The translations under genes and the position numbers were made by a program. This document shows positions 4,866-37,718 of a stretch of DNA of 64,000 bases, piece by piece. The notes beneath the pieces were generated by a model. That model did not search any database, was not told the DNA's origin, and saw only the letters and a program-made list of their open reading frames with translations. The number at the start of each line of letters is the position of its first letter. Positions within the stretch are counted from its first letter, which is position 1. The DNA comes from Escherichia coli (GTDB taxonomy: Bacteria > Pseudomonadota > Gammaproteobacteria > Enterobacterales > Enterobacteriaceae): NCBI RefSeq assembly GCF_024298765.1, contig NZ_CP101210.1, one strand, 5' to 3'.

Positions 4866-7800
4866 TTATTCAAACAGGGCTTCAATATCGTTAATTAGCT
4901 CGCTGGCGGTGATGGCATCGAGTACGGAGAACTGCGCTTCCTGTGTTGAATTACTCCCCCAGCCATAGCTTTCTGCTTTGCCTTCCCATAGCCACAGCTT
5001 GCTTAAGAGCTGCTCGGCACTCAGTTCGGCTGGCGACATGCCTACCGCAAAACCTTCGTCGATTTCCATGATTAACGACCAGCGACCGAGAGGTTTGATC
5101 ATCCAGCCGATCCAGCCTCCATCCTGCGGGGTGCCCTTTATCCAGCCTTTATTCGCCAGCCCCATGACCCGACCGCTCGGGCATTTTCTGCCTGCCCAGC
5201 GGGTCAGTTCGCTGGCGTTGCGCTCGGCTTCTGTCAGGGCGTAACTGTTACGGTCAAGCTGACGGAACGGTGGTAGCAGTTCGTAGTCGGCAAAAAGCTG
5301 ACCAAAGGCGGCAGCATCCGTCGGTGATATTTCCAGAACGTGAGGAATGCCAACAGAGATATCGCCTTCCGGCAGGGTGAAAAGATCATCGTCAGCGGTG
5401 CTGTAGCTGTTATCTTCCGCCACGCGGAAGCACGTCAGTAGCTGGTTTTCGGTGCTATAAACGCCCCAAATCAGACGGCGGGTTAAGTGGCGTACCAGTG
5501 GATGTTCAACCAGGAAGAGCTGAAAGTTTTCTGGCGACCAGCGGCGACGCAGGCACATGGCGGATTCCAGCCTTGCTACCTGCTGGGCGGCGACGGTACG
5601 CGCATCTTTTTTCAGCAGTTTGTAGCGGTTAACAGCATCGTTCGCCTGTGATTCATCATCGCTTTTGTTTGGTTTGGGCAGGTCTTTCAGACGGCTGCCG
5701 GAAGCGTCACGCACAAACGGTTTTAAGGTTTCATCAAAGCTGACGGTGAACTGGCGTGGGCCGAAATCCAGCAGCAACGAACCGTTATCATCCAGACCGA
5801 GATCTGGTGCTAACCGATCTTCAAGCTCCGCCACTGTCAGTTCGCGACTTTCGGCAATGTCGGCAATTTTCTCTTTCGCCCGCTCCTGTAATGCTTTGAA
5901 TTTCAGTTTCTGGGCAATGCCGTTAAGCTGCATCAGGGCTATATCACTACCGATAGCGGCGAGAATATCCAACCCAACGGTGGCGCGTTTATGCTGAGAT
6001 TCGCCAGGCCAGGCGCGGATTAATGGCGTCAGTTTGCGGGCGGTGTCATCGTTACCGAGAACGCCTAACGCAGTGAACGCCCAACTCTCTCTCGACGGCG
6101 CGCCAGCGGTCTGCCAGGCGGTAAACAGATCCCAGGCAAATTCAGCCAGTGAGTCGGCGGTACAGGCATCTTTCACCTGCAATAATCCCGGATACAGAGC
6201 CTCTTCCTGAGGGAAGCGGAGCATTTCGCCGAGGTGGAGGAGGGCGCTATCTGGCAGTGATTGGGCGTTTGCTTTTAATACCGGGCGCGTCCAGAGCGAT
6301 GGCTGATAAAAGGCCGGAAGAGTGGGGATTTTTGTCGGGTGATTATCTAAGGGATCGAGCGCAAGCAGAGCGTTCACCGCGTCGGTTACTTCCGGCTGGT
6401 TATAACGCCGGGCGATTTCTTGCAGTAATGGCTGATGACCGTTTTCGCTAAGCATACGCAAGGCAGCGCGGGCGTTATCCTGAGCTTCATCGGCTTTGCC
6501 GAGCGCAGCAGGCAGCAGGCCGGTAATGGCGTGTTCCGGGTATTTCAGCAGCCAGCTACGGGCGTCTTGTCGTAGAGTTTTGAGTTTGTTGAAGGCGCGG
6601 GCGACGGCAGGTGCCAGCTCACTCGCTGCGAAGTAATTCGTGATGGGCAAGGCTTCCTGTGGATAGCGTGCAAGTGAGTTTACTAACCCAGGTAACCCTT
6701 TGAGTCCAAAATGTAACATGGCGTATTCGGTATCGGTATGTGGAGATAGGGTAAGGGCATTCCATGCTTTTACTGCTTTCTCCAGCGGCAATGTTGTCAA
6801 AATCCCCAACTGCCAATAATGCCCGGTAGGTGAATGAAACACCTTAAATTCACTTAGTAAGGTTGAATAATCTTCATTTAGCCATGCCTCAACTACCGCT
6901 TCGGGAGCTTTAATATATGTACCAGCGATCCGTCGTTGAAAACCCATTCTTGCCAACAGGTTGGCAGTACTTTCTTCATGGCTAACCGTGATGTGTTTTG
7001 AATACCAGATATATTTCGCCAAAAGTTGATTACTGATTTCTTCTGTCAGATAACAGATTGGCTCAATGCCTAATGGCGCTAACTCCAGCACCGGAATCGT
7101 CGCTTTTTTCTTTTTCGAAAGCCATGGTGGGGAGACTACTATGGCAGGCAGTAGATCGGCGCAGGCATGGTTTGAGGGCTGTGTCAGTTGTTGCTGGCAT
7201 GATTTCAGTACGGCAACTGCGGGTGTCGAGAGCCAGGGAATGACCTGTTCTGCCAGTGCTGGTTGTGAGATAAGCATTGTCATTAGCATAATGCGCCAAC
7301 TGTTCTCTTCTTTTTGCCCAAGAAGTTCCGTCAGTGCCGCCATTGCTGCATGTGGGAACGCAGCAATGGCTTTCGTCATCCGATCGTGACAGCGTTTAGT
7401 TTGCCCGGCTACACGTATAAGCAGTGTCAATGCGAACGGATGATTGATATGACGCAACACATCGGCGCAGTAGTCACTTGCGGCATAGGGAGCAAATCGG
7501 GGCAGGGCTGCAACACCTTGCTCCTGTAATACGGTGGCTGACCATATCGCACCACAATAGTAATCATCAAAAATGGCATATGGCTCGTGATATTTTTCTA
7601 ATGAGGCAAGAATGTGCTCATCAGTCGCCACTATTTTTAACCACTCAAGCGAGGGTAATTTTTTTTGCCCCAGTAGACGCTGGGCAATTTCATGTGCAAT
7701 TTCTGGTTTTTCGGGTAATAACAAAGCAATTAATGGTTGCCGCCATTCTGGAATATGTGGAATTGCGGCAATAAGTTTTTGTGTACATTTTTGCCAGAGA

Positions 7801-12619: not shown

Positions 12620-12650
12620 TTTGGCAACCTGATTTTAATTGCATTTAGAA

Positions 12651-12690
12651 AGCCGAAATCATTTATATAAATGATTTCGGCTTTTTTATT
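12651..12690 (+). terminator. Intrinsic terminator after yehE
   Basis: 13-bp inverted repeat AGCCGAAATCATT/AATGATTTCGGCT followed by TTTTTT. Confidence 0.7.
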
Positions 12691-24038: not shown

Positions 24039-25039
24039 ACCGCCTCCCGTTGTTGACGATATTTCGCCAGCGCTGTGGCATAGCGGTTGAAATCAAGCTG
24101 ATTTACCGCATCCAGTTCCGCCTTTAATGCAGGATCGATAGCGTTAACGCCATGCAACGCGCCGCAAATCGCCGTCGCCATAGCGCCGATGGTGTCTGTG
24201 TCGCCGCCAAGGTTAGCGCACAGGACGGCGCAGCGATTCGGGTCGGTTTGTGCCAGTTCAACCAGCGCAATGGCGCACGGAACGGACTCAATAGTGCTGG
24301 TACCTGCGCCAACGACCTGGTAAAGCTGTTCGCTGGCGGATTCGGTGCCGTCGGCATTGCGCACAATTTTCAGCGCAATCTCCAGACGTGCTGCCAGTGA
24401 GGCGCTGAAGGTAGTGATGCGTTTTTGCTGTGCATGTCGCGCAATTGAAGGCAGGGAATCAACAATCGCTGACCAGCTTTCTCCGTCAATGGCACGAGAA
24501 ATCGCCCATGCGATGACTACCGCACCTGCAACTGCCAGATCGGATTTATGGGTCGGGCTCGACGCCAGCGCCACATCATCAATAAAGGAATCAACATCAC
24601 GCGCCGGAAGCAAACAACCTAATGGCGAGACGCGCATCGCTGCGCCGTTGGTCACGCCGTTGTTTTCCAGTTCAGCAACGGGTTTACCGTCGCGAATGGC
24701 GTTAAGCGCAATCTTCGAGGTCGGACCTAGTACGTTTTTGTTAAAGGCGTCGAAACGCAGCGCCCAGTCGAGAATATTACGCCCAATCAGATCCGGATCG
24801 ATCTTGCCTTCACGTTCCAGTAACGCATCCGCCAGACACAGCGCCATCGAGGTATCGTCGGTGAATTCGGCGCGGTTAAAATAACAGGCCGCGTTATTCT
24901 CCTTTGGTCCAGGAAGAAAACGGTCAATCCAGCCAAAGTGTGCTTTAACGCGGCTGCGTGGCCAAAGCTCGGAGGGCATCCCCATCGCATCCCCTAACGC
25001 CTGCCCATAAAGAGCACCGAGAATACGTTCTGTTTTCAT
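24035..25039 (-). CDS. yegU: ADP-ribosylglycohydrolase-family protein YegU
   Basis: 334 aa; start overlaps the yegT stop, stop overlaps the yegV start. Confidence 0.8.
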   Translation of the reverse strand: MKTERILGALYGQALGDAMGMPSELWPRSRVKAHFGWIDRFLPGPKENNAACYFNRAEFTDDTSMALCLADALLEREGKIDPDLIGRNILDWALRFDAFNKNVLGPTSKIALNAIRDGKPVAELENNGVTNGAAMRVSPLGCLLPARDVDSFIDDVALASSPTHKSDLAVAGAVVIAWAISRAIDGESWSAIVDSLPSIARHAQQKRITTFSASLAARLEIALKIVRNADGTESASEQLYQVVGAGTSTIESVPCAIALVELAQTDPNRCAVLCANLGGDTDTIGAMATAICGALHGVNAIDPALKAELDAVNQLDFNRYATALAKYRQQREAV

Positions 25040-33396: not shown

Positions 33397-34176
33397 ATGA
33401 CGATGAATTCATTCGAGCGAAGGAATAAGATCATCCAATTAGTGAATGAACAGGGAACCGTGCTTGTTCAGGATCTGGCGGGAGTATTTGCTGCCTCGGA
33501 AGCGACAATCCGTGCCGATTTGCGCTTTCTCGAACAAAAAGGCGTGGTTACGCGCTTTCATGGCGGTGCGGCGAAAATAATGTCTGGTAATAGTGAAACC
33601 GAGACCCAGGAAGTCGGGTTTAAAGAGCGATTTCAGCTCGCCAGCGCGCCAAAAAACAGAATAGCGCAGGCGGCAGTCAAAATGATCCACGAAGGGATGA
33701 CCGTTATTCTCGACAGCGGAAGTACGACAATGCTTATCGCCGAAGGATTAATGACCGCCAAAAATATCACGGTGATTACCAACAGTCTCCCGGCAGCGTT
33801 TGCCCTTTCCGAAAATAAAGACATTACTCTGGTCGTCTGTGGTGGCACGGTCCGCCATAAAACGCGCTCGATGCATGGTTCCATTGCCGAGCGTTCATTA
33901 CAGGATATTAATGCCGATTTAATGTTTGTCGGTGCTGATGGTATTGATGCGGTTAATGGTATTACGACCTTTAATGAAGGTTATTCTATTAGCGGTGCGA
34001 TGGTCACAGCCGCTAATAAAGTGATTGCCGTTCTCGATTCATCGAAATTTAACCGTCGCGGTTTTAATCAGGTACTACCAATCGAAAAAATTGACATTAT
34101 TATTACCGATGATGCTGTGTCAGAGGTGGATAAACTGGCATTGCAGAAGACGCGGGTAAAATTAATTACGGTGTAG
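33397..34176 (+). CDS. gatR: DeoR-family repressor of the gat operon (intact)
   Basis: 259 aa, N-terminal HTH plus sugar-binding domain; uninterrupted here. Confidence 0.85.
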   Translation: MTMNSFERRNKIIQLVNEQGTVLVQDLAGVFAASEATIRADLRFLEQKGVVTRFHGGAAKIMSGNSETETQEVGFKERFQLASAPKNRIAQAAVKMIHEGMTVILDSGSTTMLIAEGLMTAKNITVITNSLPAAFALSENKDITLVVCGGTVRHKTRSMHGSIAERSLQDINADLMFVGADGIDAVNGITTFNEGYSISGAMVTAANKVIAVLDSSKFNRRGFNQVLPIEKIDIIITDDAVSEVDKLALQKTRVKLITV

Positions 34177-34257: not shown

Positions 34258-35157
34258 TTAACGCAACAGTGGACAATCTGGTGGTAATCGACAACGCAAC
34301 GCTGCCGGAAGTATTTCAATATGAAAATTTTGCCCACTCAACGGTTCGCCATCAAGATTAAAGGTGATGTCGTGTGGTGCCTGAATATCAAACCACGACG
34401 AAGCGCCTTCGATAATATTCGGGTTATCTTCGTCAGATTTTAAGGTTGATACGAGAGCCGGAAGTATTTCATCGCCGGTAAAAATGCGCAGTTGCAGCAA
34501 GCCATCGTTAATTAACGCGTTCGGACACAATTGCTGACCGCCACCGGCCTGACGCCCGTTACCAATACCAATGACCAGGGCGTCACCTTGCCAGTGAAAG
34601 TTTTCACCGCGGATTTCACAACGGTCCGGTTGCAGAGTATCCATACGCATTAAGCCATGAATGATGTAAGAGACGCTACCCAGCGCGGCTTTTAATTTTT
34701 CCGGCGTTTCTGTGGTAATACGCGTCCCAAATCCGCCTGTCGCCATATTAATAAAACAGGTTTGTTTGTTGACCTGCGCCATATCTATCGCAATGGCGTC
34801 ACCGGCAATTGCCAGTTTCAGCGCCTTATCCAGTGCCTCAGGAATCCCTACACTGGTGGCAAAATCATTGGCGGTTCCTAATGGCAAAATTCCCAGCGCG
34901 GGTATGTCATCCCCCTCACACTGAATCAACGCCGTAGAAACTTCATTAATGGTGCCATCGCCACCACCGGCAATCACCGTTGCGACGCCCAACTTCCGGG
35001 CCTCCTCTACATATCGTGCGGCATCGCCTTTCTCCCAGGTGACCCGCACATGGATCGTCATTCCTTCCTCACGCAACAGCATAATTGCTTCGCGCAAGGG
35101 TAGATTGTCAGTACTTTTGCCATTAAGAATCAGTAAGCTGGCGGGAAATTCTGCCAT
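34258..35157 (-). CDS. yegS: Lipid kinase YegS (DAG-kinase-like fold)
   Basis: 299 aa; GGDGT motif (GGGDGTINE). Confidence 0.9.
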
Positions 35158-35562
35158 GATCGTATGTGCCTTTATGATTGGTCTGTAGATAGTGTAGAGC
35201 AGAAAACAAAAGGTGGAGTCAGAACAGGATGAAAGTCGGAGGATAAAAAGTCAGTTCAAGTATGGAGGATTCAGTGGTTACCACCAGGAGCTTGCAATGG
35301 GGACAGCGAATACTAACGGCTGCCACCGATAAATTTCAAAAAAGAGCATATACCTAATATTCAACTAAACAGTGGCATCTTCAATATAATATATTAAAGC
35401 CCCCATGGAGTTACCCTGAAGGGCCTCAATGTCCGTAATTCCTACTTATGTAGGAAATGTTGTACAGAACATTTATTATAATCCTATTCAATTATAATAA
35501 TCATGCCATTATTATATTTAAACACTAGAGAGTGTCGTTGGTATTTAATGGGGGAAGGTGAG

Positions 35563-35880
35563 ATGAAAAAGATAGCTGCTATATCATTAATTAGTATTTT
35601 TATTATGTCTGGTTGTGCTGTGCATAATGATGAGACAAGTATCGGTAAATTTGGTCTTGCATATAAAAGTAATATTCAGCGTAAACTTGATAACCAATAC
35701 TACACCGAAGCCGAAGCTTCTTTAGCCAGGGGTAGAATATCTGGTGCAGAAAATATAGTAAAAAATGATGCAACTCATTTCTGTGTTACTCAGGGCAAAA
35801 AAATGCAAATAGTTGAGCTGAAGACAGAAGGTGTAGGATTACATGGTGTCGCTCGTCTGACATTCAAATGTGGAGAGTGA
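35563..35880 (+). CDS. yegR: Small putative lipoprotein YegR
   Basis: Start set at MKKIAAISLISIFIMSGC (lipobox-like MSGC), 105 aa; RBS GGGGAAGGTGAG upstream. Confidence 0.75.
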   Translation: MKKIAAISLISIFIMSGCAVHNDETSIGKFGLAYKSNIQRKLDNQYYTEAEASLARGRISGAENIVKNDATHFCVTQGKKMQIVELKTEGVGLHGVARLTFKCGE

Positions 35881-36039
35881 GAATATTTTTTGGTAAGCGT
35901 CAAATATGCGCGTTCTGGCTGTGCGTAGCCGGAACCTGTGGGAGCACGATGCCGATAAGTGAAAGGCATCGTGCTATGAAGGAGGATTCTATCGATGTGG
36001 TCAATGGAAGACGGTTACCAGAGATAGGGCTTATGCATA

Positions 36040-36126
36040 AAAAAATAAGCCCGTGTAAGGGAGATTACACAGGCTAAGGAGGTGGTTCCTGGTACAGCTA
36101 GCATTTTATGGGTTATGTTTTTCAGC
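36040..36126 (-). ncRNA. cyaR: CyaR (RyeE) Hfq-dependent sRNA
   Basis: Minus-strand sequence GCTGAAAAACATAACCCATAAAATGCTAGCTGTACCAGGAACCACCTCCTTAGCCTGTGTAATCTCCCTTACACGGGCTTATTTTTTT matches the CyaR sequence as I remember it, including the terminator; lies immediately downstream of yegQ. Confidence 0.85.
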
Positions 36127-36160
36127 GAAACGGATGATAACCTTAATAAATGCAGCTGTA

Positions 36161-36176
36161 TGTGATCGGTTTCTAA
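36161..36176. promoter_or_regulatory. Candidate CRP site (TGTGA-N6-TCTAA) centred about -42 from the cyaR start
   Basis: Half-site TGTGA plus a degenerate second half; position fits a class II CRP promoter; CyaR is known to be CRP-activated. Confidence 0.45.
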
Positions 36177-36210
36177 GAATTTTCCATCCGGGAAAAATAA
36201 TCGAAATTAA

Positions 36211-37572
36211 TCACTTACCGTGTGGGTTACGCGTGGTTTCCCCGGAGAAATTACGCATCAGCAGAGCGTAATTGAGCTCAAGATCCTGCGGGACCGGGAG
36301 CCACACAGTATAACCATCGCCTGGTGCGACCGGCATCGCTTCACCTTTGGCGTTTTCCATGTGCTCAAGGGTAAAGTTAATGTTGCCTTGCGGCGTCATC
36401 AGCTCAAGGCTGTCGCCAACGGAGAATTTATTTTTCACCGCTACCGCCGCGAGGTCCCCCTTGCGCTCACCGGTAAACTCACCAACAAACTGCTGGCGGT
36501 CAGAAACTGAATAACCGTATTCGTAGTTCTGATAATCGTCGTGAGTATGACGACGCAGGAAACCTTCGGTATAGCCACGATGCGCCAGACCTTCCAGAGT
36601 TTCCAGCAGGCTGGTATCGAACGGTTTGCCCGCAGCGGCGTCATCGATAGCTTTACGGTAAACCTGTGCGGTGCGTGCGCAATAGTAGAAAGATTTAGTA
36701 CGGCCTTCGATTTTCAGCGAATGCACGCCCATTTTGGTCAGGCGTTCTACATGGGCGATGGCGCGCAGATCTTTCGAGTTCATGATGTAAGTGCCGTGCT
36801 CATCTTCAAACGCGGTCATATACTCGCCCGGACGCTGGGCTTCTTCGATCATAAACACTTTGTCGGTTGGCGCGCCGATACCCAGCGTCGGCTCAACATT
36901 TTGCACCGGAATCGGCTCGTACTTGTGTACGATGTTGCCAACGTCATCTTCTTTCCCTTCCTGGACGTTGTACTCCCAGCGGCAGGCGTTGGTGCAGGTA
37001 CCCTGGTTCGGATCGCGCTTGTTGATATAGCCAGAGAGCAGGCAGCGACCGGAGTAGGCCATGCACAGTGCGCCGTGAACGAAGATCTCGATCTCCATAT
37101 CCGGCACCTGATTGCGGATCTCTTCAATCTCTTCCAGCGACAGCTCGCGAGAGAGGATCACGCGGGTCAGGCCCATTTGCTGCCAGAATTTCACCGTCGC
37201 CCAGTTTACGGCGTTAGCCTGCACCGAGAGGTGGATCGGCATTTCAGGGAAGTGCTCACGCACCAGCATAATCAGCCCTGGATCGGACATAATCAGCGCA
37301 TCCGGCCCCATTTCCACCACCGGTTTCAGGTCACGGATAAAGGTTTTCAGCTTGGCGTTGTGCGGTGCAATGTTGACCACGACATAAAACTTTTTCCCCA
37401 GCGCGTGGGCTTCATTGATGCCGAGCTGAAGATTTTCGTGGTTGAATTCGTTGTTGCGCACACGCAGGGAGTAACGCGGCTGGCCCGCATAAACAGCATC
37501 TGCGCCATAAGCGAAAGCGTAACGCATATTTTTCAGCGTTCCCGCCGGGGAAAGGAGTTCCGGTTTAAACAT
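36211..37572 (-). CDS. yegQ: Peptidase U32-family protein YegQ (TrhP, tRNA ho5U34 hydroxylation)
   Basis: 453 aa; U32-family cysteine motifs. Confidence 0.85.
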   Translation of the reverse strand: MFKPELLSPAGTLKNMRYAFAYGADAVYAGQPRYSLRVRNNEFNHENLQLGINEAHALGKKFYVVVNIAPHNAKLKTFIRDLKPVVEMGPDALIMSDPGLIMLVREHFPEMPIHLSVQANAVNWATVKFWQQMGLTRVILSRELSLEEIEEIRNQVPDMEIEIFVHGALCMAYSGRCLLSGYINKRDPNQGTCTNACRWEYNVQEGKEDDVGNIVHKYEPIPVQNVEPTLGIGAPTDKVFMIEEAQRPGEYMTAFEDEHGTYIMNSKDLRAIAHVERLTKMGVHSLKIEGRTKSFYYCARTAQVYRKAIDDAAAGKPFDTSLLETLEGLAHRGYTEGFLRRHTHDDYQNYEYGYSVSDRQQFVGEFTGERKGDLAAVAVKNKFSVGDSLELMTPQGNINFTLEHMENAKGEAMPVAPGDGYTVWLPVPQDLELNYALLMRNFSGETTRNPHGK

Positions 37573-37718
37573 AATTCTCTCGTTCTGATGACAGGTCAGA
37601 TCCGCTTCACCTGATGAAGCGGTTAGGGGAGTGCCCCCACTTTAAGGGCGGGCATTGTAGCGCTGTGGGGGGATCTGGTAAAGCGCCGGACGCCAACAAC
37701 CCACGCCCGGCATCGTAA

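Follow-up and report, generated by a model that had tools for sequence, protein, structure and literature searches.

Results

An unoccupied P2-type attachment site between yegR and cyaR

The junction between yegR and cyaR in this Escherichia coli chromosome, at positions 35881-36066 of the window (the whole 64,000-nucleotide stretch of DNA that was analysed), is in all likelihood an unoccupied attB for P2-type phages at the 3′ end of the cyaR small-RNA gene, with the perfect hairpin of the junction lying outside the attachment site and the host arm representing an older scar. We put the probability of this reading at about 0.8. The anatomy of the locus, the insertion point, the arm homology and the frequencies in the population, which are described below, were observed directly. 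The features of the locus are as follows.

34258-35157, minus strand, yegS
35243-35271, plus strand, weak candidate for a decayed att core copy (ATAAAAAGTCAGTTCAAGTATGGAGGATT) bordering the islet on the left
35250-36039, no strand assigned, yegR islet, an inserted block of 790 bp that ends exactly at the left edge of the P2 core
35563-35880, plus strand, yegR, 105 aa, Pfam PF27694 (YegR), present as an ORF and in the RefSeq annotation of the same sequence
35912-35935, plus strand, stem-loop hp1, GTTCTGGCTG-TGCG-TAGCCGGAAC, 10 pairs including two G-U pairs, from plus- and minus-strand folds
35943-35975, plus strand, stem-loop hp2, 11 bp of perfect pairing around an 11-nt loop, lacking a U-tract
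35992-36039, plus strand, relic of a P2-type attP P arm, consisting of the integrase arm-type repeat TGTGGTCA and then a shortened equivalent of the IHF region
36040-36066, crossover site, P2 attachment core AAAAAATAAGCCCGTGTAAGGGAGATT, 27 bp, doubling as the 3′ half of the cyaR terminator
36043-36128, minus strand, cyaR small-RNA gene (Rfam RF00112, with 100.7 bits where the gathering score is 47)
36075-36048, minus strand, stem-loop of the cyaR intrinsic terminator, followed by a U-tract, from the terminator scan
36211-37572, minus strand, yegQ/trhP

The TGA stop codon of yegR occupies 35878-35880, and the spacer that separates it from the 3′ end of cyaR (35881-36042) measures 162 bp, in agreement with the spacing of about 160 bp given in an earlier account that was made without database searches (referred to here as the sequence-only reading). 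Two open reading frames in the spacer were considered and judged not credible. One is a 69-aa frame (35868-36077), which should be broken by a length difference in a run of A residues and by the 169-bp difference described below, and the other is a frame of 10 codons that follows the sequence AAGGAGG.

Two observations concern the wider neighborhood. A gene for a DeoR-family regulator, which we take to be gatR, lies upstream of yegS (33397-34176) and is intact in the window (259 aa), whereas the same gene is annotated as an N-terminally truncated pseudogene in the K-12-like genome ATCC BAA-196. On the other side of the junction, yegQ/trhP and yegP are separated by a ParD/ParE toxin-antitoxin pair in some E. 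coli strains (loci L144, 7026-7629, and L165, 4231-4825); the corresponding gap in the window is only about 146 bp long (37573-37718).

The core at 36040-36066 is identical at all 27 positions to the annotated attP Int core site of phage P2 (AF063097, 24356-24382). Occupancy of the locus was surveyed by comparing a 666-bp query, which extends from yegR to cyaR, with 5,426 complete E. coli genomes. The yegR-cyaR locus was found in 5,423 of these genomes, being contiguous or nearly so in 4,562 and split in about 861 (about 16%). When the locus was split, the left piece ended at query position 522 and the right piece started at position 496, and the overlap of the two (query 496-522) is 27 bp long and corresponds to 36040-36066 of the window. 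The unoccupied junction was present in about 78% of the 5,426 genomes and the junction with the K-12-type remnant in 356 (6.6%). The short junction is therefore the ordinary form of this locus, a usual and already described state, and K-12 is a minority exception. The gene ryeE, which is the same as cyaR, is a known phage target (PMC3603311).

The orientation of the resident phages could be read from lysogens. An integrase gene follows the core on the yegR side in the lysogenic strain E47 (attL, locus L003), whereas ogr, the P arm, the core and cyaR follow one another in that order at an attR (locus L159); an attR is also found in K-12. The attL flanks collected from IMG/VR (for example, loci L035, L085 and L128) show at least three kinds of phage-side arm at the core. 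In the P2 type (92 of 98 flanks) the identity to the host stops after ...GGGAGATT; in six flanks it stops after ...GTAAGGG and in one after ...GTGTA, and the last of these endpoints coincides with the left junction of the K-12 element PR-X. We propose that the integrase exchanges strands within the 27-bp core and that the phage therefore inserts there, in which case the incoming phage would restore the cyaR terminator with the core copy that it carries.

The hairpin lies outside the crossover

The MG1655 chromosome carries an element annotated as "cryptic prophage PR-X" (2167183-2167811), with ogrK and the pseudogene yegZ, between cyaR and yegR, and yegZ is annotated as a fragment of a D-family protein in a K-12-like genome. 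This annotation confirms what the sequence-only reading had stated of K-12, namely a phage remnant with ogrK and a D-protein fragment between the two genes. PR-X is flanked by two copies of the core, the left of which is partial (2167812-2167829). The hairpin is intact in MG1655 (2167894-2167926), 64 nt outside the left partial core copy, and the hairpin of the window likewise ends 64 nt before the core. Because this distance is found both in K-12 and in the window, we conclude that the hairpin lies outside the crossover; it would be expected to stay with yegR in the left (B) arm whatever fills the site. The sequence-only reading had proposed that the hairpin could be an unoccupied attachment site or else a recognition element for a protein or an RNase, and the first of these proposals has to be divided. 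It holds for the junction, which contains the P2 core and is split there in about 861 genomes, but it fails for the hairpin, since the K-12 insertion point leaves it 64 nt away, an outcome that the sequence-only reading had itself named as refuting.

One could still envision that hp2 itself is an unoccupied attachment or recognition site for some mobile element, because palindromes serve some integrases and transposases and because an IS3 element is inserted immediately beside the hp2 stem in NZ_CP149543.1. The IS3 insertion, however, was seen in a single strain and looks sporadic, and the segment from hp1 to hp2 is uninterrupted in 5,408 of 5,414 genomes. The recurrent insertions map to the core at 36040-36066 instead, the P2 junctions in K-12 and in the lysogens leave the hairpin untouched, and the 169-bp length difference maps to the yegR stop codon and reflects a pseudogene remnant (see below). 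We give almost no credence to this role of the hairpin, and we return to the junction as the attachment site.

The yegR islet ends at the core

The origin of the host arm was approached through a survey in which one genome per species was scanned with a pattern for the 3′ end of cyaR, and the boundaries of the block were placed by BLAST comparison with Escherichia relatives and E. albertii. Homology to E. whittamii stops at 35238 and homology to Escherichia sp. E1V33 and strain E69 stops at 35249; it resumes at 36039/36040. The yegR gene, the hairpin and the arm relic were all absent in E. whittamii, Escherichia sp. E1V33, strain E69, Enterobacter, Kosakonia and Silvania, and in these six islet-free taxa the start codon of yegS lies about 100 bp from the end of cyaR. 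Because the islet is absent from sister Escherichia species, where yegS abuts cyaR, it must have been inserted exactly at the edge of the core. This insertion point, together with the P-arm homology described in the next section, leads us to regard the "empty" site as the scar of an earlier integration. The B arm would accordingly be debris of that integration, the yegR block having probably entered at the core edge in the E. coli lineage, and the last 48 bp of the islet would be the decayed P arm of a P2-like attP.

A weak candidate for a decayed core copy, ATAAAAAGTCAGTTCAAGTATGGAGGATT, is located at the left edge of the islet. When an anchored extension was used to compare it with the islet-free sister junctions, 9 of 500, 13 of 300 and 2 of 300 shuffles scored as high as the real sequence, whereas a strict local scoring gave no significant match.

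Other occupants of the same position were identified. E. albertii NBRC 107761 (locus L149, 4957-8321) has a different block of 3.4 kb at the same two points. It contains the cytolethal distending toxin genes cdtA, cdtB and cdtC (identified with Pfam), along with an IS fragment and a P-arm relic that is well preserved. Since this is a different islet at the same point, a combination of cargo and arm scar appears to be a recurring outcome at the site. In Kluyvera ascorbata ATCC 33433 (locus L158, 1115-1943), the space from yegS to the cyaR core is taken up by yet another block, about 830 bp long.

With respect to the cargo itself, yegR makes up the body of the islet and is AT-rich, with a GC content of 31-40%, and PF27694 is listed for all YegR homologs. 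We considered whether yegR could be a phage moron, that is, a non-essential cargo gene, and rejected this candidate: YegR is not encoded by any genuine phage record, and its homologs, which have about 46-83% identity and occur in other contexts (one of them an Enterobacter chromosome), lie in non-phage neighborhoods outside prophages. Of the features that mark an attR-type scar, the segment displays two, namely absence from relatives with boundaries at the att core and homology to a phage arm, and neither phage genes nor phage-internal homologs of yegR, hp1 or hp2 were found in it.

The DNA immediately downstream of yegR differs in length among strains. In 947 of the 5,426 genomes, including ST131, 169 extra bp are found right after the yegR stop codon (between 35880 and 35881; locus L002, 1843-2011). 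These 169 bp are what is left, in decayed form, of the N-terminal part of a second lipoprotein gene, which follows yegR in metagenomic contigs from other chromosomal contexts; the comparison with that gene gave a tblastn E value of 6e-7 and a nucleotide score of 78 versus 31 ± 5.5. The window and K-12 have lost the remnant, and the length difference at the yegR stop is one of a retained pseudogene remnant and not of an insertion. The possibility that the hairpin is the 3′ part of this decayed lipoprotein gene was rejected (score 25 versus 23.7 ± 3.7), and the terminators of the donor-type loci are unrelated to the hairpin.

A relic of a P2-type P arm adjoins the core

In the P2 annotation, the ogr stop codon is followed by a Rho-independent terminator (24265-24288), the integrase P-arm site (24293-24320), the IHF site and the core. 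The region of the window from 35992 to 36026 (TCGATGTGGTCAATGGAAGACGGTTACCAGAGATA) was aligned locally to the P2 P arm (TCGATGTGGTCAATGTGTGGACGTGACCAGAAATA) with a score of 38, whereas shuffled sequences gave 14.8 ± 2.2 with a maximum of 26, and none of 2000 shuffles reached 38. Within the relic is TGTGGTCA, identical to the first arm-type repeat of P2 itself; repeats of this type have the consensus tgTGGaCa (PMC3448106). The phage-arm homology that adjoins the core therefore includes an integrase arm-type repeat.

The host arm is polymorphic in length at 36022-36027, where some E. coli alleles (loci L041, L072, L086 and L100) have about 12-14 extra bases. These bases (CAATCCGTATTTAC or CAATCCGTCTCTAT; ...GGGATCAATCCGTATTTACAG...) restore likeness to the IHF-site region of the P2 P arm, and the gap between the repeat and the core is 59 nt in the long alleles as compared with 63 nt in P2. 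A multiple alignment of P2, PR-X, E. albertii and the divergent Escherichia lineage described below showed one homologous arm with varied decay.

A more elaborate history can be imagined, in which hp2 and the 11-mer TAAGGGAGATT are what is left of an older att core, so that the B arm would record two integrations as an old core, a P arm and the current core. In ST131-type alleles TAAGGGAGATT equals the right end of the core and is positioned 3 nt upstream of the arm relic, and the score of this allele was reached by 7 and 26 of 1000 shuffles. The commonest (E47-type) allele has AAGGGAGATT at that place, with a score reached by 26 and 60 of 1000 shuffles. The window allele, however, carries AAGGAGGATT, with a score no better than chance, the left half of the core shows no similarity, and the match, which was noticed post hoc, is marginal and dependent on the allele. 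We therefore think that two successive integrations are quite unlikely and retain a single scar, with one arm relic, as the preferred reading of the B arm.

No variation was seen at 35985-36011 (27 nt, which include TGTGGTCA) in 26 haplotypes, as compared with about 0.2 variable sites per nt in the surroundings, although this sample is partly biased, having been obtained in two pattern-based scans that favor exact matches in the hairpin or the arm. The 16-mer of the arm was exact in every assembled haplotype, and all 85 of the IMG/VR flanks selected with the hairpin hold at least CGATGTGG within the 40 nt downstream. It is conceivable, if highly improbable, that the host-side P-arm relic is kept for a function rather than just decaying and that the hairpin is a bend or boundary element of the same complex. 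A host arm site of this kind would make attB and the resulting attL resemble attP, and it could explain the preference of P2-type phages for the site or could alter excision.

Structure and copy number of the hairpin

The arms of hp2, AGCACGATGCC (35943-35953) and GGCATCGTGCT (35965-35975), are 100% complementary and enclose an 11-nt loop. The stem runs into ATGAAGGAGG when read along the plus strand and into CCCACAGG along the minus strand, and a T-tract is found on neither. A terminator scan of 35300-36400 called the cyaR terminator alone and did not call hp2. With a U-tract absent on both strands, an intrinsic (Rho-independent) terminator was rejected as an identity for hp2. The arm match and the scan together uphold the description in the sequence-only reading of a perfect inverted repeat at 35943-35975 that has no T-tract and is not an obvious intrinsic terminator.

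The predicted RNA fold of hp2 has a free energy of -24.1 kcal/mol (z = -6.4) for the plus strand and of -20.4 kcal/mol (z = -7.4) for the minus strand. Four distinct repeats of this class (perfect, 11 bp or longer, with a loop of 3-20 nt) occur in the 64-kb window, against a mean of about 0.5 in 20 shuffles. The hairpin is thus real and stable, yet it is one among several such hairpins in the window. The strongest palindrome, at 12649-12690, is perfect, with arms of at least 16 bp that start with AAAGCCGAAATCATTT and a loop of about 4 nt, and other palindromes of the window begin at 7339 and 52984.

Two further identities for hp2 were tried and rejected. A dispersed repeat, such as a palindrome of the REP/BIME type, does not agree with its copy number, as hp2 is single-copy in 5,414 of 5,426 genomes (median 1, maximum 2 places per genome), and a search of the window that allowed up to 3 mismatches gave one match. 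A known RNA family was rejected on the result of the Rfam search, which placed hp2 in no family; cyaR was the sole passing match, and the best of the others had E values of at least 0.5 and scores far below the gathering scores.

Origin of the hairpin

The neighboring stem-loop hp1 contains two G-U pairs, so that only RNA of the plus strand can pair along its full length. Up to CCTGTGCGA, the 169-bp remnant and hp1 are also present in the divergent Escherichia lineage SCPM-O-B-8794; beyond CCTGTGCGA this lineage has a different module of about 135 nt, which also ends in a P-arm relic. The start of hp2 is the exact point at which SCPM-O-B-8794 diverges, and because hp2 begins at that switch, we assign it to the right-hand, phage-derived module. 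The hairpin is located 18-50 nt upstream of the arm repeat, and the ogr terminator of P2 is located 21-46 nt upstream; hp2 would thus appear to sit where P2 has the terminator of the ogr/late operon. From this arrangement we infer a phage origin of hp2 itself. The hp2 sequence was found inside no phage in the phage collection or in IMG/VR, where all 85 of the 85 matches are host flanks beside yegR.

A possible role of the hairpin in RNA

The position of hp2 past the yegR stop codon raises the question of what it would do in a transcript. Together with the upstream hp1, it would form a structured 3′ end of the yegR mRNA, and a stem-loop that lacks a U-tract would be expected to block 3′-to-5′ exonucleases and not to terminate transcription efficiently. 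In E. coli, transcripts whose termination depends on Rho have their 3′ ends marked and protected by stable stem-loops that lack a U-tract (PMC6061677). In this respect hp2 resembles a protective 3′ stem-loop, being stable (-24.1 kcal/mol, z = -6.4), devoid of a U-tract and located downstream of a gene. The 67 nt downstream of hp2 contain 20 G and 8 C residues and are unlike a Rho utilisation (rut) site. In MG1655 exposed to glutathione, expression of yegR rose 11.9-fold and that of the downstream ogrK 6.6-fold (PMC5811628), and since the two genes rise together, this result suggests that transcription reads through past hp2 in MG1655. No entry for the yegR 3′ end was found in supplements of published 3′-end maps. 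We tentatively consider hp2 to be the 3′-end stem-loop of yegR, with a chance that is about even at best.

The variation of hp2 among the 26 haplotypes affects 5 of the 22 arm positions and 4 of the 11 loop positions. Three of the arm variants are C-to-T changes, after which a G-U pair can still form in plus-strand RNA, the other two are G-to-A changes that break pairs, and no compensatory double changes were seen in these haplotypes. Because the stem varies like its flanks and shows no compensatory pair, selection on the structure is not demonstrated, and we rejected it as a conclusion from the population variation.

One hypothesis that takes these results at face value is that hp2 is a functionless relic, the decayed stem of a terminator that came either from a lost phage or from an imported yegR cassette, which is now drifting neutrally. 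Variable sites are as frequent in the stem and the loop as in the flanks, and some of them break pairs; the hairpin has neither a U-tract nor an Rfam family; and the neighboring DNA is itself decaying, as seen from the pseudogene remnant that is kept in 947 genomes and deleted here and from a 12-column length difference in the arm. On the other hand, the perfect 11-bp stem is kept in both of the major E. coli alleles despite 8 differences in the 88-position segment, although the chance that none of the 8 would fall in the hp2 arms is about 0.1, and three of the five stem variants are of the kind that keeps pairing in plus-strand RNA. A relic without function is possible but somewhat doubtful in our judgment, and a 3′-end stem-loop of yegR is the role that we favor, with the reserve expressed above.

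Discussion

The identification of this attachment site is a finding of little importance in itself, and the evolutionary reading is a by-product of it. The "empty" site would hold a layered scar, in which the yegR islet is joined by a second gene in decay and by the relic of a P arm, and Escherichia lineages hold different cargo at the same core, namely yegR, cdtABC and PR-X. The locus illustrates how the 3′ ends of small-RNA genes may collect phage debris, and it warns against reading the flanks of an attB as native host DNA. The scar reading also offers a concrete hypothesis for the origin of yegR, an orphan acid-response gene.

Several known systems can be compared with the junction described here. 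The protective 3′ stem-loops of Dar and Sorek (2018, PMC6061677) resemble hp2 in that they are stable, are located past a stop codon and have no U-rich tract, but hp2 differs from those of Rho-dependent transcripts in that the DNA downstream of it is G-rich and not rut-like.

As compared with the P2 attB, the core of the window is without differences, and P2-like prophages fill the site in about 16% of the genomes, with int facing yegR and ogr facing cyaR; the hairpin is not a part of this attB. The attB at the 3′ end of cyaR is presumably "locI", the primary P2 site of E. coli C.

K-12 PR-X is what remains of the right end of a P2-like prophage, located at the core that the window also has. 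Its deletion endpoint lies inside the left copy of the core, and its P arm is intact beside cyaR. The window, in contrast, is without PR-X, and its own scar is older and far more reduced, with only a 48-bp decayed P arm and no ogr or D sequence.

The cdtABC islet of E. albertii differs from the islet of the window in that it carries toxin genes as cargo instead of yegR, contains an IS fragment and has a much better kept arm. It is nevertheless like the window in its overall plan, with cargo and a P2-type P-arm relic placed against the same core and within the same yegS and cyaR boundaries.
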